IMG/VR virus record: IMGVR_UViG_3300042564_005954
Coordinates: 1-62,553 of that record
DNA length: 62,553 nt
DNA from: a virus
Taxonomy: Duplodnaviria > Caudoviricetes
Reading direction: 5' to 3' (one strand)
Shown here: in pieces, positions 131-58,964 of the stretch
How the letters are laid out: every line of letters starts with the position of its first letter
Position numbering within the stretch: the first letter of the stretch is position 1
The notes under the pieces: model-generated
What the model was told of the DNA's origin: nothing
Databases searched by the model: none
Seen by the model: only the letters and a program-made list of their open reading frames with translations
Position numbers and translations under genes: made by a program

Positions 131-148
131 ACAAAAAACGGAAAAAAT

Positions 149-1003
149 ATGAAAACGGAAACTCTTAATTTTACTCTAACCAAGATCAATAACGTTAACT
201 ACGAAAAGGGTCTATTTGAAGCTCATAAAACGGATACCCCACTAGACGGACTATTCTCTGTTAATGGTGGAGTACCTAAAGCAACTAACTGGATGATCGT
301 AGGAGATCCGGGAGTTGGTAAATCAACAGTAACACTGGATATCTTATCCAATGCAAAGAAGAATGGTAGTAAGGTACTGTTTATTTCAGCAGAGATGAAC
401 CAGGTGGACCTTTTCCTATATGTACAAAGGTACCCTAAATTTGGTGACCTAGACATCTTTTTCCCACAAGATATAGAAGAGGGACAAAATCCTAAACGTA
501 TACTAGAAGCAATACTTGACCAAGGCTGGGACCTTATCCTTATTGACTCCTTTGTGGAACTACAAGAAATTATTCGTGAAGAATGTTCTGTTACTAGAAA
601 TTCAGCCGAGAAATATCTCCTAGACCTTATGTATAAACATAATCTAGGCCAAAATAGCGCAAAGAGGTTTACATCATTCCTTAATATACAACAGGTAAAT
701 AAAGGTGGAGTATTTGTAGGATCGAATAAGCTAAAACATATGACCACTGGTATGATGGAAATCCGTTTTGTGGATGAACATAGCCAAGATGAACGCTATG
801 TGGTATTTTCAAAGAATCGTCGTGGCCATGTTGGTAAGCAAATGTTCTTTGATCTATCTGCTAAGGGAGATGTTACCTATGACACCGAAAGATTTAAAAA
901 GGCGGAAGGCCTTAAAGAACTTAAAAAGCGCGAAAAAGAACTAATAAAAGAACAAGGTATAGGATTTGATAAACTATTTGGCCTTGTGGAAGGGGACCAA
1001 TAA
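149..1003 (+). CDS. RecA-superfamily ATPase, RadA/Sms- or KaiC-like
   Basis: Walker A GDPGVGKST, VLFISAEM, Walker B LILIDS, KNRRG finger; ATG 149 preferred because the TTG at 122 lies in the promoter. Confidence 0.8.
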   Translation: MKTETLNFTLTKINNVNYEKGLFEAHKTDTPLDGLFSVNGGVPKATNWMIVGDPGVGKSTVTLDILSNAKKNGSKVLFISAEMNQVDLFLYVQRYPKFGDLDIFFPQDIEEGQNPKRILEAILDQGWDLILIDSFVELQEIIREECSVTRNSAEKYLLDLMYKHNLGQNSAKRFTSFLNIQQVNKGGVFVGSNKLKHMTTGMMEIRFVDEHSQDERYVVFSKNRRGHVGKQMFFDLSAKGDVTYDTERFKKAEGLKELKKREKELIKEQGIGFDKLFGLVEGDQ

Positions 1004-1130: not shown

Positions 1131-2285
1131 ATGTTAACAACCCTTTCCAACCAAGTTTATCAAGAGAGAAAAGCTGAGGCTATTAAAAACCAAGTTCTAC
1201 GTAAAGAAGTAAACCTATCTGAACTAGACGTGGTAGACAATACTCATATACGCCTTGACGGTGTAACCATACAACTCTCTAACCACGCATTCGGTAAATT
1301 ACTAAGCCGCCTACGTATACCAAAGGCTTTCGCCAAAAGATTTGAAGATGGCTTCGGTAAAGACGGTTTACGCCAATTGGTACAAATGATGAAAACCATG
1401 AAGACCACAAATCGTGATCAAATGGTAACCCTACTGGTGGACCATAAAGAGAGAAAAATCTCTGATATACTACCTCATAATTATGCGTCTATATCTAACG
1501 AAAGTTTCGTTGATTTCGCTGAAGGCTATATAGATCAATACGGACTAGAAGTAACTCATATGGGATCAGATCCACGTGGTGGAGTAACCATTAATACAGT
1601 AAGCCCTAATGGTCTACTACAAATACCTGGTATGAAGGATGAACTATTCCATACTGGTGTAACTTTCCGCAATACACCTGAACGTGGACTAGAAGTCAGT
1701 CCTTTTCTTAATCGCCTAGTATGTACCAATGGTATGACTTCAACATCATTCTCTGAAACGTATGGTTTACACCAACTATCTGATAAAGGTATTAATGAAT
1801 TTAACGATCATATGCTTAGAATGGCCTCTACTGGATTCCAACCGGTTGGTATGGCTGATCAAATCCGTAAGGCCAATATAACCAATGCTTCTGTTGGGGA
1901 GGTAGAACAGGCCCTGAGCCGTGTATTAGGGTCCGATAAAAGCCTAGATTATGACTATATGCAACGCTATATACCACTAAATAGGGTAAATAACGCCTAT
2001 TCCAACAAAGGCGTAAATACAGCCGAATTAACCTCCAAACAACGCTCTACTGCTAACAGTGGTCTATCTGTCTGGGAATTGGTTAATGGTATTACCAATT
2101 TTGCTTCTAACGATACTAGATTTAATATATCTGACAATACTAGAGGTAATCTAATGGTAACCGCTGGTAACCTGTTAATGAAAAAGGATTACGATATGGA
2201 TGGTCTATTAACTGTGGATCCATTCCGTGGTGGTCAACTACTAAATACTCAAGAATCAAATCGTATTATGGGTAATCTTAACTAG
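1131..2285 (+). CDS. DUF932-like phage protein
   Basis: 384 aa; RLVCTNGM motif and C-terminal WELVNGIT motif typical of DUF932. Confidence 0.6.
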   Translation: MLTTLSNQVYQERKAEAIKNQVLRKEVNLSELDVVDNTHIRLDGVTIQLSNHAFGKLLSRLRIPKAFAKRFEDGFGKDGLRQLVQMMKTMKTTNRDQMVTLLVDHKERKISDILPHNYASISNESFVDFAEGYIDQYGLEVTHMGSDPRGGVTINTVSPNGLLQIPGMKDELFHTGVTFRNTPERGLEVSPFLNRLVCTNGMTSTSFSETYGLHQLSDKGINEFNDHMLRMASTGFQPVGMADQIRKANITNASVGEVEQALSRVLGSDKSLDYDYMQRYIPLNRVNNAYSNKGVNTAELTSKQRSTANSGLSVWELVNGITNFASNDTRFNISDNTRGNLMVTAGNLLMKKDYDMDGLLTVDPFRGGQLLNTQESNRIMGNLN

Positions 2286-2399
2286 GGCTATCCGCCGGGT
2301 GGTACTCTTTTTTCCGTTTCCGTTTCCGTTTCCCTAGGATACCACCCGCCACCCTATTTAGGACCTCTTTAAGGGACTGCCATCAGGCGGTCCCCTTTT
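2283..2399 (+). ncRNA. Candidate 3'UTR-derived small RNA with (UUUCCG)n loop
   Basis: Stem CGGGTGGTA (2296-2304)/TACCACCCG (2340-2348) and outer TAGGG/CCCTA enclose TTTTTTCCGTTTCCGTTTCCGTTTCC; followed by a terminator. Confidence 0.55.
2373..2399 (+). terminator. Intrinsic terminator
   Basis: GGGACTGCC-ATCA-GGCGGTCCC stem (one G-U) then CTTTT. Confidence 0.75.
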
Positions 2400-2536
2400 A
2401 GTCTCTATCCCTAAGGCAGTACCTTTAACATAGCCTAGGCGGTACCCACATAGTGCCTAAAGAGTATTATACTCTCAGGGGTATATTGCTCCTGTAGGTG
2501 GTCAAGTGACCGATGGAGCATGCTCTTCTCCAGTTT

Positions 2537-2799
2537 TAAAATTTTCCGGCCAGAATTTCTAGACCCTCTGGAACTCTCTCCCCTAAATTTTTCCAGCCAG
2601 AATTTTTAGACCTCTTGTAACTCTCTCCCCTAAATTTTTCCGGCCAGAATTTCTAGACCCTTTGGAACTCTCTCAGGTAAATTTTTCCGGTCAGAATTTT
2701 TGGTCCTTCCAAAACTCTCTCAGGTAAATTTTTCCGGCCAGAATCTGAAGCCCTTCTGGAACTCTCTGGGCTTTGGTACCTAAGGTTTTCCAGCCAGAA
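2537..2799. repeat. Five 47-bp tandem repeats plus a partial sixth
   Basis: Units start 2537, 2584, 2631, 2678, 2725; core TAAATTTTTCCGGCCAGAAT...AACTCTCTC; partial copy 2781-2799. Confidence 0.9.
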
Positions 2800-2990
2800 A
2801 AGAGTGTCCCTATAAAAGGGTGTGCCAAGTAACTCTTAAAGAAGGGGGAGGGCCCTAAACCGTGTGCTGTTTATTGTAGGCCTTAAGACTAAGAGAGCTT
2901 ACAAAGGGTTCGGTACGCATAAGCCACCGGTAGACCCGCTAGGCGGGAGGCCGTGGTAATTCTATGATAAATAAAAGAAACACAATCAAG

Positions 2991-3164
2991 ATGAAATCTA
3001 TCGTAGACTTTGAGGCCTTTATGGGCGAGAGCCGTATTTATACTCCATTAGAACTTGAGAGAAAGAGCCGTGAACTCCTAAGAGACTTGGGTATCTCCAA
3101 TCCCACCAGTGACCAACTGGAGGTAATTGTAGATGCCATCCGCCAGGTGGTAGATCCAGAGTAG
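2991..3164 (+). CDS. Small tagged protein (putative internal head protein)
   Basis: Starts MKSIVDFEAFMGE-S, a divergent version of the tag; GATAAATA box at 2966-2973. Confidence 0.65.
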   Translation: MKSIVDFEAFMGESRIYTPLELERKSRELLRDLGISNPTSDQLEVIVDAIRQVVDPE

Positions 3165-3226
3165 AAGTGCTCTAGTGTGCCCGGTGTGCGAGAGAGACCT
3201 GTGAATAAAATATATAAAGTATAGAG

Positions 3227-3282
3227 AAAAAAGTTGAAAAAAAATTTTAAAATCCCAACTGGATTGATTATATTTATATTAT
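3227..3282 (+). promoter_or_regulatory. Class-A promoter, copy 3 (upstream of the tagged array)
   Basis: AAAAAAGT(3227), ATCCCAA(3252), TATATTTA(3269). Confidence 0.8.
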
Positions 3283-3298
3283 AATAAAAAAGGAACAT

Positions 3299-3703
3299 AT
3301 GAAACGCATACACACATTTGAAAGCTTCTTAGTTGAAAGTTCACAAGACGTGTATGGAAAGATTGATGTGTTACCGGTAGGAAAGATTTTTAGCGATGCA
3401 AAAAAGATTGATGGTGTTTTTAAGAAAAGTCAGTATACCTGGAGTGAAGTAATAGAAGCCTTTGAAAAGAATAAAGAGTCTGCAAAACCACAATTTATAA
3501 ATATTAAAGACATTAAGATTACGCAACCTAATATTCAATCGGAGAAAGTAAAAAAGATGATTGATGACATAGACAAAGTGCCTCCTATCAATGTTGTACA
3601 ATTTAAGAATGGAGAAAAAGCTATTTATGATGGGCATCACCGCTTAATGGCAAACTGGGCATTAGGTGAAACTAAGATTAAAGTTAACCTGGTTAAATTA
3701 TAA
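3299..3703 (+). CDS. Tagged protein with ParB/sulfiredoxin-like domain
   Basis: MKRIHTFESFLVE tag; PPINVV...IYDGHHRL ParB/Srx motif. Confidence 0.75.
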   Translation: MKRIHTFESFLVESSQDVYGKIDVLPVGKIFSDAKKIDGVFKKSQYTWSEVIEAFEKNKESAKPQFINIKDIKITQPNIQSEKVKKMIDDIDKVPPINVVQFKNGEKAIYDGHHRLMANWALGETKIKVNLVKL

Positions 3704-5001: not shown

Positions 5002-5481
5002 ATGAAACACTTAAAAACATTTGAGAGCTTCTTAAATGAAGCAAAAGATTCAGTAACATTTTCAGTTAATGATGAAAAGCTAGATCAATTACTACATGAC
5101 TTTCACGAAAGAGAATTAGACTATGTTAAGGTTAAGGGCGATGATTTCTATAGTTTGCCTAAACGTGAATTTGATCGATTCATTGCTGCTGCTGATAGTA
5201 AAGGATTTGACGAGGAGTCTTGGAGCTATTATGAAGAATCTGTAAATTCAGTTAAAGAAGCAAAAAGCGAAAGTGGTTTAATGGTTTTTGGTAAAACTAA
5301 TCTTGACAATAATAAGATCGGTGATTGGCTAGATGATTCTGATTATACTGCCGAATGGAATGCTCGTGAAGGGTATTGGTTATTTCCTGAAGAAGAAGAT
5401 GGTTATGATGCATTAGAAGCAGAATTAGAAAAGGCTTTTACTAAGGCTAGAATTAATGCAAGATTTGAGGGAATCTTTTAA
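5002..5481 (+). CDS. Tagged acidic protein, possibly two fused modules
   Basis: MKHLKTFESFLNE-A tag; internal VKE-AK site midway. Confidence 0.8.
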   Translation: MKHLKTFESFLNEAKDSVTFSVNDEKLDQLLHDFHERELDYVKVKGDDFYSLPKREFDRFIAAADSKGFDEESWSYYEESVNSVKEAKSESGLMVFGKTNLDNNKIGDWLDDSDYTAEWNAREGYWLFPEEEDGYDALEAELEKAFTKARINARFEGIF

Positions 5482-5493
5482 AATAAAAATAAA

Positions 5494-6249
5494 GTGAAAC
5501 ACCTAAAAACATTTGAAAGTTTTCTTAATGAAGCAGAGAAAAAAGGAGACGGTTCTTTTGAATTGGCATATCCTGGTACTTACATTGCAAATTGGAAAAT
5601 CTCCGACGCGCCTAGCGACAAGAACACAGTTGCTAAAAGATTTAACTTTACTATCAAAGTAGAACACCCAGACTCTGTTATAACAGGAACTACTATTAAA
5701 GATTCTTTTACACTTGCATTTTCTAAAGACAGTCGCGGAATCTACAGTTTAGGAAAAGATGTAGAGAAATTCGTGGGAATACCTGAAGCAGATGCCATTA
5801 AGAATGTAGAAGACGGAAAAGAAAAGAAAGAAGACTCTCTTATAATGGGAATGTGTAACATTATGAACGGCGGTAAAGACATTTACTTTTGGAATAATGG
5901 ATTACGTATGATTGGCTCTGCCGAGTATGCAGGTGTATTAACAGCGGTGACTGAACAACTTTCACATGAAGCTGGTGTTCATCTTAACCGTTTAGTTTTA
6001 ACACGTCACATTGCAAATAAAAATGGTGTAAGTATTGGTAACGAAGATTGGATAACTTATAATTATGGTGCAGGCGAATACAGTTGGCCTGCAGTTGGAG
6101 ATCCTAATGATAATACGCCTAAGATCATTGCAATAGATGAAGAAACATTTGCAACTGTTGGTGGTGCTATTGTTTCTATGATTACTCCTACTTTTATTGA
6201 TATGGCATCAACATACATACCTCAATTAGAAAAAATTAAAAATATATGA
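5494..6249 (+). CDS. Tagged protein with possible metal-binding HExxxH motif
   Basis: GTG start, MKHLKTFESFLNE-A tag; LSHEAGVH and downstream IDEE. Confidence 0.75.
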   Translation: MKHLKTFESFLNEAEKKGDGSFELAYPGTYIANWKISDAPSDKNTVAKRFNFTIKVEHPDSVITGTTIKDSFTLAFSKDSRGIYSLGKDVEKFVGIPEADAIKNVEDGKEKKEDSLIMGMCNIMNGGKDIYFWNNGLRMIGSAEYAGVLTAVTEQLSHEAGVHLNRLVLTRHIANKNGVSIGNEDWITYNYGAGEYSWPAVGDPNDNTPKIIAIDEETFATVGGAIVSMITPTFIDMASTYIPQLEKIKNI

Positions 6250-6856: not shown

Positions 6857-6889
6857 TGAGAGACCGTAATGGCCTCTCATTTTTTTTTT
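6857..6889 (+). terminator. Intrinsic terminator closing the tagged array
   Basis: TGAGAGACC-GTAAT-GGCCTCTCA stem (one mismatch) followed by ten T. Confidence 0.85.
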
Positions 6890-6900
6890 CATAAATAGAG

Positions 6901-6956
6901 AAAAAAGTTCACAAAATATTTTTATATCCCAACAAAATGTATTATATTTATATTAT
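6901..6956 (+). promoter_or_regulatory. Class-A promoter, copy 4
   Basis: AAAAAAGT(6901), ATCCCAA(6926), TATATTTA(6943). Confidence 0.8.
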
Positions 6957-6984
6957 AATAATTAAAACTAATACAAATAAAATT

Positions 6985-7149
6985 ATGGAAGCAACGGTCG
7001 GAAATTTAATCATTGAATTGAAAAAGGATTTAATCTTAATTAGAGAAAGAGTAAGTGGAGATTTATTAAAATGCAGAGAAGTATCTCCTTGTACTGCTGT
7101 AGAAAATTTTCAAGATTTAGTAAAAGCCCTTAAAGAAAAAAAGAAGTAA
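6985..7149 (+). CDS. Hypothetical protein
   Basis: ATG 6985 after A-rich leader; ORF-track start 6937 is inside the promoter. Confidence 0.6.
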   Translation: MEATVGNLIIELKKDLILIRERVSGDLLKCREVSPCTAVENFQDLVKALKEKKK

Positions 7150-8756: not shown

Positions 8757-8853
8757 TTATCAAATCTTGGTAGATACAGTATTAATAGGCATACTTTTTC
8801 TATGTGTTTCTTGTGTTATTTATGGAATACAAAACTTTTTTAAAAAAAGATAA
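8749..8853 (+). CDS. Small membrane peptide (34 aa)
   Basis: MINYQILVDTVLIGILFLCVSCVIYGIQNFFKKR*; one TM segment plus basic tail. Confidence 0.45.
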   Translation: MINYQILVDTVLIGILFLCVSCVIYGIQNFFKKR

Positions 8854-8908
8854 AAAAAGTCTATAAAAAGTTTTAAAATCCCAATAATATTGTTTATATT
8901 TATATTAT
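8853..8908 (+). promoter_or_regulatory. Class-A promoter, copy 5
   Basis: AAAAAAGT(8853), ATCCCAA(8878), TATATTTA(8895). Confidence 0.8.
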
Positions 8909-8929
8909 TAAATAATAAACAAAACGGAA

Positions 8930-9460
8930 ATGCTAACAACAACATTTTTTACATCTCTTAAAAATACAACACCTTCAAAAGTTTGTAAATTGGAAGAAAT
9001 TTTCGGTATCATTAAATCTGAAAAGTATAAACCTATTGTCTCTAAAATAAGAGCAGAAGAATTACCTAGTAAATCGCCTCTAAAAAACAAAATACCTGTT
9101 TTTACTCCTACTGGCGTTTTTAACCACAGGTCTATTAAAGGATTGGAAGTTTATAACGGTATTATATGTTTAGATCTAGACAGTGTAGAAGATCCACAAT
9201 CTCTCAAGGAAATGTGTAAAACTTTACCTTATGTTTATGCTGCATTTATTACACCATCTGGTAAAGGGCTAAAGGTAATAATTAAAACATCTGCTAATAC
9301 TGATGAATATAAAGTAATGGAGGAATCGGTATCCAAAAGATTCTTTGATGATACCGGGTTTATGAGAGATAATCGTTGTAAGGATATTGCAAGAATACAG
9401 TTTCTTTCTTATGACCCAAATCTTTATTATAATGAGCAATCAGAATTTTTTAATATTTAA
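8930..9460 (+). CDS. BT4734/BF3469-family (VirE N-terminal, AEP-like) stand-alone domain
   Basis: FTPTGVF, CLDLD, FITPSGKGLK and KDIARIQFLSYDP motifs. Confidence 0.8.
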   Translation: MLTTTFFTSLKNTTPSKVCKLEEIFGIIKSEKYKPIVSKIRAEELPSKSPLKNKIPVFTPTGVFNHRSIKGLEVYNGIICLDLDSVEDPQSLKEMCKTLPYVYAAFITPSGKGLKVIIKTSANTDEYKVMEESVSKRFFDDTGFMRDNRCKDIARIQFLSYDPNLYYNEQSEFFNI

Positions 9461-12047: not shown

Positions 12048-12303
12048 CAAAAAACAAAAAAGTATTGTTGAATCCTTAATGGGATATATGATGAAGCATC
12101 ATTATGAAGACTATATGAATCTTAAGTATGATGTTTTAATTAATACAACAGAAAGTGTCATAAGACAAAATTATGCTCCATTTGGTGAAGCGGTTTTTAA
12201 AGATATAATAACTTTCTTTGAGGAAAGAGAAGAATATGAAAAATGTCAAGCATTAGTAGATCTTAAGAAAAAAATTTTAAATAAAGAGAAAAAAGTTCAT
12301 TAA
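12034..12303 (+). CDS. Hypothetical protein with UVR-like C-terminal motif
   Basis: [12 protein letters not shown] motif. Confidence 0.6.
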
Positions 12304-12344
12304 AAATTTTAAAATCCTAACTATTTGTATTATTTTTATATTAT
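12289..12344 (+). promoter_or_regulatory. Class-A promoter, copy 6
   Basis: AAAAAAGT(12289), ATCCTAA(12314), TATTTTTA(12331). Confidence 0.7.
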
Positions 12345-12360
12345 AATAATTAATACAAAC

Positions 12361-13671
12361 ATGAACGGAAACTTAATTAAAAACCTACAAACATTATTAG
12401 TATTTTTAGATGAAATGAATGCAAGTTCTTCAAATAATGCAAAACTTACAATCATCAAAAAATACTCAAACAATGAATTTATCGTAAAGGTATTTCAGTA
12501 CACATTTAACCATTATAAAAAATATGGTGTACATACAAAGGTTCTTAAAAAACATTCTAACCTTTGTTTAAGCGAATCCATTTATGATGACCTATTTCCT
12601 TTATTAGACGATTTAGCAGAAAGAAATATTACAGGCCACTCTGCTATACAAGCTGTTAATACATTCATAAATACTCTTCCTCAAGAACTTCATAAATTAA
12701 TTTATAGAATACTTGATAGAGATCTTCAAATGGGTGCATCTTTAACAAGTATTTTAAAAATAATCCCAGGTATTGTTCCTACATTTAAAGTTGCTCTTGC
12801 TCATCCGTATCATCCTAGCCGAGTTGATTTTCAAAATGAAATTTGGTACGGCAGTAGAAAATTGGATGGTGTTCGTTGTATTTGTAGAAAAGAAGGAAAT
12901 AGTGTAACATTCTTTTCAAGAAATGGCAAAGAATTTGAAACGTTAGGAAACCTTGAAAAAGAGATCCAAAAAATACCTGGCAACTTTATATTAGACGGAG
13001 AAGTCTGTATAGTGAATAAAAATGGAAAGGAAGATTTTCAAGGTATTATGAAAGAAATACGTCGCAAAGATCATACAATAGAAAATCCTAAATTTCTCGT
13101 ATTTGATTATCTTTCCATTGAACAGTTTGATGAAACTTCAGAATCCAATAATGCAAATCTTTCAATTAGATTAAGCTTATTAAATATTATTCTTTCTGAT
13201 TCAAATTCTTTATTTATTGAACCTATTTCGCAAGTTGTTATTAAAGATGAAACACAATTTACAGAAATGGTTAAAGAAGCTGAAACTGAAGGATATGAAG
13301 GAATTATGTTAAGAAAGGACCTACCATACGAAGGTACAAGATCTCATAACCTTTTAAAGGTTAAAAAATTCCACGATGCAGAGTATAAAGTGCTAAACAC
13401 AGTTAATGGAATTATACGTTGGATAGAAGGTGGAATAACTGTTCAAAGAGAAACGTTAAGTGCTATTATAATTGAACACAAAGGATGTTTAGTAAATGTA
13501 GGTAGCGGATTCTCTAAAGAACAGAGAGAAAGATATTATGCTAATCCTGGTGAACTGATTGGTAAAACTGTAACTATACAATATTTCGAAGAATCACAAA
13601 ATCAAATGGGAGGCTATAGTTTAAGATTCCCGGTGGTAAAACATATTTATGAAAACGGCAGAGATTGCTAA
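12361..13671 (+). CDS. lig: ATP-dependent DNA ligase
   Basis: KLDGVR (motif I), LDGE, VFD, EGIML, LLKVK and OB-fold LRFP. Confidence 0.95.
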   Translation: MNGNLIKNLQTLLVFLDEMNASSSNNAKLTIIKKYSNNEFIVKVFQYTFNHYKKYGVHTKVLKKHSNLCLSESIYDDLFPLLDDLAERNITGHSAIQAVNTFINTLPQELHKLIYRILDRDLQMGASLTSILKIIPGIVPTFKVALAHPYHPSRVDFQNEIWYGSRKLDGVRCICRKEGNSVTFFSRNGKEFETLGNLEKEIQKIPGNFILDGEVCIVNKNGKEDFQGIMKEIRRKDHTIENPKFLVFDYLSIEQFDETSESNNANLSIRLSLLNIILSDSNSLFIEPISQVVIKDETQFTEMVKEAETEGYEGIMLRKDLPYEGTRSHNLLKVKKFHDAEYKVLNTVNGIIRWIEGGITVQRETLSAIIIEHKGCLVNVGSGFSKEQRERYYANPGELIGKTVTIQYFEESQNQMGGYSLRFPVVKHIYENGRDC

Positions 13672-57465: not shown

Positions 57466-58964
57466 ATTTAACACTTTCTGACAATAAAATGTTTTTAGTT
57501 ATTGATTCTTGTACTGAATTAGAATACGAGCAATTAAAAACATCATTAACTAAAAAAATCGAAGGCTGGAGATTTCATCCACTTGTAAAACGAAAATTAT
57601 GGGATGGGAATATTTCATTTATAAAAAAGAATAAAATTCCAGCTGGACTTTGGAAAGAGGTTATTGATATATGTAAAGAATACGATTTAGAATTTAGCTT
57701 AAATGGAATAACAAATGTTTTTGATACTGACATAACAGAAGAATCATTTAATAACTGGGTTGAAGATTTTTTTAAAAACAGTGATATAAAACCAAGAGAC
57801 TATCAAATAAGTGCTGCATTTAAAATACTTAAATACAGAAGATGTTTAGCTGAGTTAGCAACATCAGCAGGTAAAACTCTTATTTCATTTATGGTTATAG
57901 CTTACTTAATGGAAGTTTTAGGAAAAAAGAAAATCCTAATGATCGTGCCTAATGTAAGTTTAGTAGTTCAAGCTTCAGGCGATTTTGAAGAATACAACCG
58001 TCAGCGTGTTTCATTAAAAATACAACAAATTTATTCAGGAGTAAAACTTAGACCTAGTTCAAATATTGTTATAGGAACATACCAATCTCTTGTAAAAAAT
58101 GATGAAGAATATTTTAAACAATTTGATGCAGTATTAGTAGATGAAACACATAAAGCTAAAGCAGCTTCTATACAAACCATAATGGACAAATGTTGGCATT
58201 GTGATTATAGATTTGGTTTAAGTGGAACAATACCTAAAAGAGGAACTGTTGATAGGTTAAGTCTTATGTCTGCAATGGGCCCTCTCGTTACGCAAGTAAA
58301 AGCAAATTATTTACAAGAAGAAGGACATATAGCACAATGTAAAGTTATACAATTTCACATGGATTATGCTACACTTGAACAGAAGACAGCATTTGCAGAA
58401 CTTTCTAAAAATTCTTATGATAGACAACGCCTATTTGGTTTAGAACAAAATTTTATAAACCAGGATGAAAAGAGACTTAATTTTATTTCACAAATAATAA
58501 AAAAGAGTACAAGTAATTCATTAGTGTTATTTCATAAAATAGATTATGGCGAAAAGATATATCAAAAACTTCGTGAAATAACTGATAAAAGAATTTATTA
58601 CGTTGATGGTGGAGTTAGTCCTGAACTAAGAGAAGAGTTTAAATCTAGGATGGAAAAGAACAATGATGTAATAATTGTAGCATCATACGGTACATTTTCA
58701 ACTGGTATTTCAATTAAAAATATACATAATATATTTTTTACAGAATCTTTTAAAAGTGAAGTAATAATTAGACAAAGTATAGGTAGAGGTTTAAGAAAAC
58801 ATCATGAAAAGGAAACTGTAAAAATATATGATTTTATTGATGATCTTAGATATAAAGATGAAACTGTAGATTGGTCTAATTATACGTTTAGACATGGAAT
58901 AGAAAGAAGAAAAATTTATAAAGAAGAAAAGTTTCCGTTTGAAGTTCACGACATAAAATTTTAA
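57462..58964 (+). CDS. uvsW: UvsW-like SF2 helicase
   Basis: WDG, PRDYQ, ATSAGKT, VDETH, GLSGT, STGISI and QSIGRGLR motifs. Confidence 0.92.
   Translation: MNLTLSDNKMFLVIDSCTELEYEQLKTSLTKKIEGWRFHPLVKRKLWDGNISFIKKNKIPAGLWKEVIDICKEYDLEFSLNGITNVFDTDITEESFNNWVEDFFKNSDIKPRDYQISAAFKILKYRRCLAELATSAGKTLISFMVIAYLMEVLGKKKILMIVPNVSLVVQASGDFEEYNRQRVSLKIQQIYSGVKLRPSSNIVIGTYQSLVKNDEEYFKQFDAVLVDETHKAKAASIQTIMDKCWHCDYRFGLSGTIPKRGTVDRLSLMSAMGPLVTQVKANYLQEEGHIAQCKVIQFHMDYATLEQKTAFAELSKNSYDRQRLFGLEQNFINQDEKRLNFISQIIKKSTSNSLVLFHKIDYGEKIYQKLREITDKRIYYVDGGVSPELREEFKSRMEKNNDVIIVASYGTFSTGISIKNIHNIFFTESFKSEVIIRQSIGRGLRKHHEKETVKIYDFIDDLRYKDETVDWSNYTFRHGIERRKIYKEEKFPFEVHDIKF

Follow-up and report, generated by a model that had tools for sequence, protein, structure and literature searches.

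The subject of this analysis is a candidate regulatory RNA element in the IMG/VR virus record IMGVR_UViG_3300042564_005954 (Duplodnaviria; Caudoviricetes), which was analysed over its whole length of 62,553 nucleotides (nt) and is referred to here as the window. The record has a G+C content of about 30% and an estimated completeness of only about 23%, so that all counts made on it are record-wide and not genome-wide. Within the first 14 kb almost every open reading frame (ORF) lies on the plus strand, among them ORF 1131-2285, which ends in the stop codon TAG at 2283-2285 and encodes a protein of 384 amino acids (aa) and unknown function; searches with this protein returned no Pfam or PDB match, and phrog_1362, itself of unknown function, alone was matched. 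The 3' untranslated region (UTR) of the ORF bears a hairpin whose apical loop is the exact reverse complement of short boxes located at the translation starts of several other genes in the window, and it is the partnership between this loop and these boxes that constitutes the main finding.

The hairpin is long and irregular, extends over 2270-2367 on the plus strand, starting around the stop codon, and in the RNAfold prediction has a core stem formed from 2297-2309 and 2336-2349. The apical loop of 26 nt (2310-2335, plus strand) consists of a T run followed by 3.8 copies of TTTCCG at 2311-2333, a tract that Tandem Repeats Finder reports with a period of 6 and 100% match. As RNA it displays UUUCCGUUU, in four overlapping copies in the window and in one copy in most relatives, and is complementary to AAACGGAAA. 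An intrinsic terminator follows at 2373-2399 on the same strand, comprising a 9-bp stem with 7 GC pairs, a loop of four and then CTTTTAG, and its stem-loop (2373-2394) and T run are seen both by RNAfold and by a consensus terminator scan. Folding of 2270-2410 gave a minimum free energy (MFE) of -46.3 kcal/mol (z -2.93), with none of 200 shuffles equally stable, and a constrained fold placed 14 pairs around the repeat (z -4.8), again with none of 200 flank shuffles reaching the same stability. The four-copy tract is identical in contigs from three of four lake-metagenome runs (X4, X14 and X20), the contigs of the fourth, X10, leaving 2264-2369 uncovered, and the sequencing-run contigs that cover the tract contained no variant of it. 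Rfam includes a C4 antisense RNA model as well as CsrB/RsmZ models; it gave no match at gathering score over the whole record, and none at E values up to 1 over 2200-3000.

The sequence AACGGAAA occurs four times on the plus strand of the record (137, 154, 8923 and 12364), and all four copies lie at translation starts. Two of them flank a single ATG (149), so that they represent three independent sites. The first box, AAACGGAAAAAA (136-147, plus strand), ends 1 nt before this ATG, which opens a gene for a RecA/DnaB-like ATPase, and its 12 nt are complementary to the 5' part of the loop with a predicted duplex energy of -12.8 kcal/mol; the second, AAACGGAAAC (153-162, plus strand), falls in codons 2-5 of the same gene, has a duplex energy of -14.6 and is also found in the 95%-identical relatives L154 and L155. 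The box AAACGGAAA at 8922-8930 (plus strand; duplex -14.3) shares its last A with the ATG of a BT4734-like/VirE-N gene of the primase type, and AACGGAAAC at 12364-12372 (plus strand; duplex -14.1) directly follows the ATG at 12361 of an ATP-dependent DNA ligase gene. A weak, putative split box, AACGG-T-CGGAAA (6993-7004, plus strand), stands closely behind ATG 6985, the probable start of a small ORF, and in the model could pair with two adjacent loop repeats, the bipartite duplex having an energy of -19.4. The listed version of this small ORF, 6937-7149, begins at an ATG inside the promoter, and the in-frame ATG 6985, downstream of the -7 box, is a likelier start than 6937.

How exceptional is this placement? 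Windows of -20 to +15 around the 78 candidate starts make up 4.36% of the record and hold 4/4 of the plus-strand AACGGAAA copies (binomial P 3.6e-6, or about 1e-4 if the two ATPase boxes are counted once), the number of copies expected from the composition of translation initiation regions (TIRs) being 0.108. Among 167 permutations of the same composition, at least two near-start matches were reached only by two frame-shifted versions of the motif itself. The minus strand also has four copies of AACGGAAA, three of which are the loop and one of which is at 58932; the latter corresponds to the sole other plus-strand TTTCCGTTT (58932-58940), at the end of a coding region and without a hairpin, and is taken as a chance occurrence.

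The boxed genes share a promoter type. Six near-identical promoters, termed class A, were found at 60-130, 1040-1112, 3210-3280, 6885-6955, 8840-8907 and 12275-12343, with -7 boxes (TATATTTG or TATATTTA) at 117, 1099, 3269, 6943, 8895 and 12331; the first of them, on the plus strand, combines the Bacteroidota-type -7 box TATATTTG at 117-124 with a conserved upstream block. About 60 nt are common to all six (GAAAAAAGTY ... TTTTA.AATCCYAA ... TTG.TTATATTT(G/A)TAT), a length well beyond the needs of a -33/-7 pair and one suggestive of an UP element or a factor site. The promoter consensus of Bacteroidota is quoted in PMC6847099 as TTTG/TAnnTTTG, and marine relatives have the same promoter type (TTGATTATATTTATA) throughout. 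Each of the four boxed genes stands behind a class-A promoter, and the other two class-A genes, with ATGs at 1131 and 3299, are box-less, the first of these being the 384-aa gene that carries the hairpin. The anatomy set out in the first-pass annotation of this DNA, which was made from its letters alone, stands in most respects: the stem, loop and terminator that it placed at 2283-2399 reappear in the RNAfold prediction, the tandem-repeat report and the terminator scan; the loop is the exact reverse complement of the boxes at 136-147, 153-162, 8922-8930 and 12364-12372; its weaker CGGAAA at 6999 proves to be part of the split box behind a class-A promoter; the targets are, as it claimed, class-A-promoter genes; and the enrichment of the box near starts that it made a point of checking was found across the record.

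Homologues of the 384-aa protein, ranging from 62 to 95% identity, provided a further view of the hairpin. The 87 relatives kept comprise seven IMG/VR contigs, with 62-66% identity, and 80 metagenome loci, three of which are 95% identical. Seventy of the 87 loci reach the 3' end of the gene and yield 51 distinct downstream sequences of 110 nt, the 17 truncated loci being excluded; in 51 of 51, from marine and freshwater relatives, TTTCCGTTT occurs shortly after the stop codon. When 42 distinct 57-mers (excluding the window and the multi-copy relative L153) were aligned on the motif, the invariant columns were exactly the nine letters of this nonamer. With the nonamer forced to be single-stranded, a hairpin of 5-15 pairs encloses it in 42 of 43 distinct sequences, the exception being L204, and the stems take at least ten unrelated sequences across clades, including GGUUAGUAG/CUACUAAUC, GGCAGUAG/CUGCUGUU, UCAAGGU/ACCUUGA, CCUGG/CCAGG, CGGG/CCCG, ACUAAG/CUUAGU, GGUAU-GGG/CCC-AUACC and, in the window, CGGGUGGUA/UACCACCCG. 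In one fixed register 61.7% of cells are paired, where shuffles average 46.5 +/- 1.6%, and the covariation score, which averages 0.172 in shuffles, reaches 0.364, with none of 500 shuffles reaching either observed value; by both measures this register also beats all registers slid by 1-3 columns. The count of double-change pairs (13/13) is not distinctive, as 212 of 500 shuffles reach it. A plus-strand intrinsic terminator lies 32-83 nt past the motif in 44 of 44 distinct tails, against a minus-strand terminator-like site in one of the 44. The nonamer is present once in 42 of 44 distinct relatives, in two overlapping copies in the 95% relatives and in four in the window, so that the tandemly repeated seed of the first-pass annotation is a property of the window and its closest kin and is not general. 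Anecdotally, multi-copy loops and a pair of boxes around the ATPase ATG occur in one and the same clade.

Some searches returned nothing further. For the ungapped alignment anchored on the motif RNAalifold predicted no structure, since the register varies from clade to clade. A covariance model, R1, recovered in the same register only the sequences on which it had been trained; the multi-copy hairpins of the window and L153 escaped it. The ATPase protein, used as a second query for more distant phages, led to the same close group only, and a 14-mer loop-word scan of viral contigs gave only chance matches among those listed. The phage genome collection contained no DNA match to the stretch and, at the protein level, a single distant homologue of the 384-aa protein at 25% identity, whose gene is followed by a plain terminator with no motif.

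The boxes are conserved as well. In 74 non-redundant loci totalling 348,076 nt (13 of the 87 were dropped as contained in others), AACGGAAA is present on the gene strand in 141 copies, 130 of which lie within -20 to +15 of an ORF's first ATG, where the ORF start was taken as the first ATG of any ORF of 40 aa or more. Permutations of the same composition average 16 occurrences and 3.8 near starts, with only motif-shifted words rivalling AACGGAAA. The antisense word TTTCCGTT is found on the gene strand in 74 copies, about one per locus, and this copy is the hairpin. For the 138 boxes with sufficient flank, the distance from the end of the box to the following ATG is -1 to 5 nt in 119 and 10-19 nt in 19, and 125 have a TAnnTTTR motif within 70 nt upstream, at a distance of 2-37 nt (mostly 13-33); the position of the box thus follows the start codon and not the promoter. 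Boxes just inside the coding sequence, which the window also has, fit a target in the footprint of the ribosome and would not be expected of a promoter element. Conversely, of 230 promoter-like sites an exact box follows 122, a near-box 28 and none 80, although some of these 80 are not real promoters; genes without a box thus share these promoters, and expression as such does not depend on the box. The ATPase gene is boxed throughout the relatives, and the complementarity of loop and box is evidently no coincidence of one sequence, the pair being conserved in the relatives with 130 of 141 boxes at starts.

Whole related records have 5-7 boxes per 55-181 kb, mostly within a few kb of the hairpin. 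An independent 67-kb contig, found through the promoter and box pattern, has five boxes at ATGs and a hairpin with another new stem and a terminator. Among the 100 stretches that a scan for this pattern returned, the box was away from an ATG in roughly half, and five of the 100 loci also had a hairpin inside the stretch, a count that says little because the stretches are short. Four whole records from the scan are 7-37% complete: the hairpin is present in G006, the 39 kb of G005 include boxes and no antisense copy, and the antisense copies of G007 and G008 are coding-like and not hairpins.

Predicted pairing energies separate the boxed from the box-less starts. The core loop-box duplex is predicted at -8.9 kcal/mol, and the five boxed class-A TIR sites, belonging to four genes, give -12.8 to -19.4 where the two box-less class-A TIRs give -4.3 and -1.6. 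The complementarity of the seed to several initiation regions exceeds chance in the window as in the relatives, and the seed is an invariant nonamer held in a conserved hairpin (with a reservation for one clade described below) and accompanied by a terminator on its own strand in the window and in every distinct relative. The anatomy of the element, the complementarity, the conservation of both partners and the strand context are thus matters of direct observation. Chance is not a credible explanation when the one word that never varies in the hairpin and the word most enriched in the TIRs are exact reverse complements.

The setting in which the boxes operate is one where Shine-Dalgarno (SD) words are near-absent before candidate starts, with GGAG in one of 65 TIRs and GGAGG in one of 65, and where candidate TIRs in the record have an A content of 45-65%. 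Judged by the promoter type and the absence of SD words, the host appears to be a member of the Bacteroidota; the bacterial genome contigs scanned contained no relative and so gave no host assignment. Of the first-pass claim of a host that does not use SD sequences, the part concerning the TIRs and promoters has held, and the host itself is deduced from them. In hosts of this apparent kind, which lack SD pairing, the box would be the address of a regulator and not a ribosome-binding element.

The reading that is proposed is of a regulatory RNA module in the 3' UTR of ORF 1131-2285, made as part of the plus-strand transcript. This transcript would fold into the long hairpin, present UUUCCGUUU in its open apical loop and end at the intrinsic terminator. 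The loop would then pair in trans with the AAACGGAAA box, situated where the ribosome binds (about -20 to +15), in several promoter-proximal phage genes; in the window these are the ATPase, primase-type and ligase genes and a small ORF. By covering the initiation region the pairing would lower translation, and as the UTR-bearing transcript accumulates a delayed negative feedback on the replication module would result. The element may act as an mRNA 3' UTR instead of as a discrete small RNA (sRNA). Repression is considered the likeliest outcome because a duplex ending 0-5 nt from the ATG lies in the 30S footprint and because in Flavobacterium johnsoniae, as presented in PMC6847099, initiation is tuned by A-rich, unstructured TIRs, and structured TIRs go with lower translation. 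Transcription of the element, its pairing in vivo, repression and timing are what we infer. We would put the probability that this 3'-UTR antisense loop acts in trans to repress the translation of phage replication genes at about 0.55, and a functional RNA pairing between loop and box, of whichever sign, is considered fairly probable.

Several observations weigh against this reading and need to be set beside it. Both the choice of repression over activation and the label 'early' are assumptions, and there is no RNA run among the listed sequencing runs that contain the stretch. The nine-letter core is invariant and hence offers no covariation between seed and target, which the first-pass annotation proposed to look for in relatives; in the flanks there is a weak trend, with A as the 5' neighbour of the loop nonamer accompanied by T as the 3' neighbour of the box in 51 of 112 cases, G by C in 3 of 3 and T by A in 5 of 9, cases that are phylogenetically non-independent. 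At the level of anecdote, the U6 flank of the window loop matches the A6 flank of box 1, and the 95% relatives have G and C there. A whole-loop RNAduplex scan of the record is unspecific, ranking the ATPase TIR about tenth, behind purine-rich coding stretches. Taken one at a time, only 23 of the 43 hairpins surpass 95% of their flank shuffles, because the two flanks are compositionally complementary, and in unconstrained MFE structures the nonamer is fully unpaired in only 5 of 46; in the main (largest) marine clade part of it can close into a weak A-U/G-U mini-helix capping a UUCC loop. Folding energy shows no strand preference (plus stabler in 23 and minus in 20 of 43, p 0.54), the stems having only 25 G-U among 489 pairs, and the strand assignment therefore rests on context. 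Finally, the idea that the regulator's own gene is always exempt from the box is ruled out: the TIR of the 384-aa gene is box-less in 19 of 31 distinct relatives, and is boxed, often 10-19 nt upstream, in the other 12.

Two sets of repeats lie close to the elements discussed so far. After the terminator, 2400-2963 is a non-coding stretch of about 560 nt, and G+C rises to 43.5% over 2001-3000 against about 30% for the record. Within it, at 2537-2767, a 47-nt unit that includes a short CCAGA/TCTGG inverted repeat is repeated 4.9 times in tandem, and in one lake contig from run X10 exactly 94 nt (2630 to 2725), the length of two units, are missing; standing beside replication genes, these repeats may be iterons or an origin. 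The marine relative L003 has a repeat-rich non-coding stretch straight after its hairpin and terminator (5260-5960), with reiterated CTAGA and ATATAGCC words, and in relatives L001 and L004 the hairpin is present, there is no repeat region and the next gene begins directly. A separate 12-bp perfect inverted repeat at 1014-1075 (arms 1014-1025 and 1064-1075, a 38-nt spacer, then TTTC) is situated between the ATPase stop codon and class-A promoter 2, encloses the upstream AAAAAGTCT block of that promoter and could be a large-loop terminator or a regulatory site.

Accepting that loop and boxes pair, must the outcome be repression? What structure and conservation say in favour of pairing leaves its sign undecided, and the loop might instead stabilise or activate the mRNAs that carry boxes, through protection from endonucleases or through 3'-5' communication like that of the kissing-loop 3' translation enhancers of plant RNA viruses; alternatively, abundant box mRNAs might titrate the hairpin and so alter termination or read-through at 2373-2399. 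The constant position of the hairpin 32-83 nt before a terminator would suit such a role, as would the 12 of 31 relatives in which the same mRNA is boxed in its 5' UTR, where a 5'-3' contact in cis is possible. An outcome other than repression is nevertheless judged rather unlikely, since boxed TIRs are A/U-rich and unstructured and leave no inhibitory fold to be opened, a 9-12 bp duplex 0-5 nt from the ATG is inside the 30S footprint and is expected to block, and in F. johnsoniae, as presented in PMC6847099, lower translation accompanies structure in the TIR. A special form of activation, in which the loop-box pair substitutes for the SD interaction, with the hairpin (possibly together with bS1, the ribosome or a phage factor) kissing AAACGGAAA and delivering or retaining ribosomes on replication mRNAs, is considered quite unlikely; were it true, the phage would have a private initiation channel in SD-blind Bacteroidota, and a bacterial virus would possess an equivalent of what plant RNA viruses have in their 3' cap-independent translation enhancers. 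The box as a Shine-Dalgarno sequence in its own right was rejected, as the F. johnsoniae 16S tail given in PMC7797042, ACCUCCUUUCU, is not complementary to it (compared by eye, and the rRNA of the actual host may differ) and its spacing of -1 to 19 nt, extending also past the ATG, departs from the fixed spacing of about 5-9 nt expected. The same two features tell against the view that the motifs are unrelated, with the hairpin a 3'-end stabiliser or protein-binding loop, the box a translation-enhancing leader motif and the complementarity coincidental; so variable a placement is unlike that of a positioning element. That the core shows no covariation and the duplex scan no specificity would agree with this view, which becomes very improbable given that the hairpin nonamer is, in all clades, the exact reverse complement of the most enriched TIR word.

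Two molecular readings of the shared nonamer remain, namely pairing between RNAs and recognition of the same site as duplex DNA. Under the latter the nonamer would be bound by a phage or host protein as a regulon mark of the DnaA-box type, with an opposite-orientation site near a possible origin (the repeats at 2400-2960), and it can be said for this that the box genes are replication genes, that the 9-mer is present in both orientations, that a repeat-rich non-coding stretch follows the hairpin in the window and in L003, and that folding is without strand preference. RNA is favoured, and the DNA site thought unlikely, because the orientations are strictly segregated (141 copies in the sense direction, at starts, and roughly a single antisense copy in each locus), because position tracks the ATG and not the promoter and can be inside the coding sequence, and because the antisense copy always lies within covarying inverted repeats at a constant place between the stop codon and the plus-strand terminator; L001 and L004, moreover, have the hairpin without the repeat region. 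A further possibility, raised in the first-pass annotation, is that the boxes are ACGGA sites for a CsrA- or RegA-like translational repressor and that a minus-strand hairpin transcript with GGA repeats is a sponge for it. The A-CGGA of the box resembles a CsrA-type GGA site, the minus strand of the window loop would show four GGA and the hairpin folds equally well on both strands; T4 RegA, according to the account in PMC3014915, binds the TIRs of about 30 mRNAs. Set against the sponge are the single GGA per loop in most relatives, the minus-strand terminator-like site in one of 44 tails as opposed to plus-strand terminators in all 44, the plus-strand orientation of all neighbouring genes and the absence of a sigma-70-type minus-strand promoter in 2140-3300, in a scan that does not model Bacteroidota promoters. 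CsrA had no match in the record, which is only some 23% complete, and its control matched in Escherichia coli, Bacillus subtilis and Thermotoga maritima and not in Bacteroides thetaiotaomicron; RegA (PF01818) also had no match in the incomplete record, a result that carries no information because its control matched in no genome. The combination of many loop GGA and a CsrA partner that marks CsrB/RsmZ-type sponges was accordingly not found, and this reading is regarded as highly improbable. Other candidates were set aside: a nut/put-type antiterminator and a rolling-circle nick-site hairpin both leave the boxes unexplained, and an inverted promoter cassette does not fit a hairpin whose minus strand bears neither an ATG nor a promoter.

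How would an antisense loop of the proposed kind compare with known systems? The c4 RNA of the P1/P7 immI operon and the CI RNA of satellite phage P4 are likewise phage-encoded structured RNAs that control the phage's own mRNAs by pairing. Their exposed loops are complementary to short mRNA boxes on the same strand and in the same region. They form an immunity/antirepressor switch of temperate enterobacterial phages within one operon, and c4 is described in PMC8201110 as an antisense regulator of ant. The present element differs in that the boxes mark the start codons of a number of replication genes, each separate and promoter-proximal, that it occupies a 3' UTR before a terminator, that the host is Bacteroidota-like and that there is no Rfam match. 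Loop-seed sRNAs of Gram-positive bacteria do not need Hfq and target the SD sequence. In these RNAs, such as Staphylococcus aureus RNAIII and the Rsa RNAs with UCCC or Mycobacterium tuberculosis 6C, a pyrimidine-rich loop motif pairs with several initiation regions, as reported in PMC2790875 and PMC6486639. Their target is needed by the ribosome, whereas here there is no SD sequence and a dedicated box has no evident role of its own, and regulator and targets are both viral. The enterobacterial 3'-UTR sRNAs CpxQ, SroC and DapZ are host-encoded and Hfq-dependent, share the terminator of their mRNA and have a conserved seed. It is in this seed, and in the placement between stop codon and terminator, that the phage element resembles them.

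In function the closest parallel is with RegA and RegB of T4, for which the same role is proposed, the post-transcriptional shut-down of pre-late and replication mRNAs of the phage through a short TIR motif. RegA competes with ribosomes at about 30 TIRs and RegB cuts GGAG in early TIRs, as set out in PMC3014915; these effectors are proteins, whereas here the effector would be an RNA loop. Base-pairing sRNAs such as GibS of Bacteroides are known in the host phylum, which lacks Hfq according to the accounts in PMC7366714 and PMC11697453, although these are chromosomal and unrelated in sequence to the phage element. The literature on phage sRNAs and Bacteroidetes translation, as searched, contained no description of the element and no phage-encoded example in the phylum; the main text of PMC9723584, its supplements lying outside the search, mentions neither the motif nor the UTR, and the box word gave only unrelated primer-type matches among the matches listed. 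A phage-encoded base-pairing regulator is in itself of a known kind, and it is the design that is unusual, with a dedicated address box at the start codon in a setting without SD sequences.

The phage group to which the record belongs is widespread in lakes and oceans and uncultured, and appears to infect Bacteroidota. The phage itself is probably large, as the related contig G001, with 181 kb, is rated only about 65% complete, and genomes in the group may be well over 200 kb. If the pairing is real, these phages would possess an RNA-only regulon in which one 3'-UTR loop addresses several replication genes by means of a nine-letter box at the start codon. Such a loop would be the first phage-encoded base-pairing regulator found described for the host phylum. 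It would match T4 RegA/RegB in function, as an RNA, and would show from nature what form post-transcriptional control takes where the SD sequence cannot be the target. Because the loop-box pair is short, invariant and easily mutated in compensatory fashion, it also has potential as an orthogonal translational switch for Bacteroidota.

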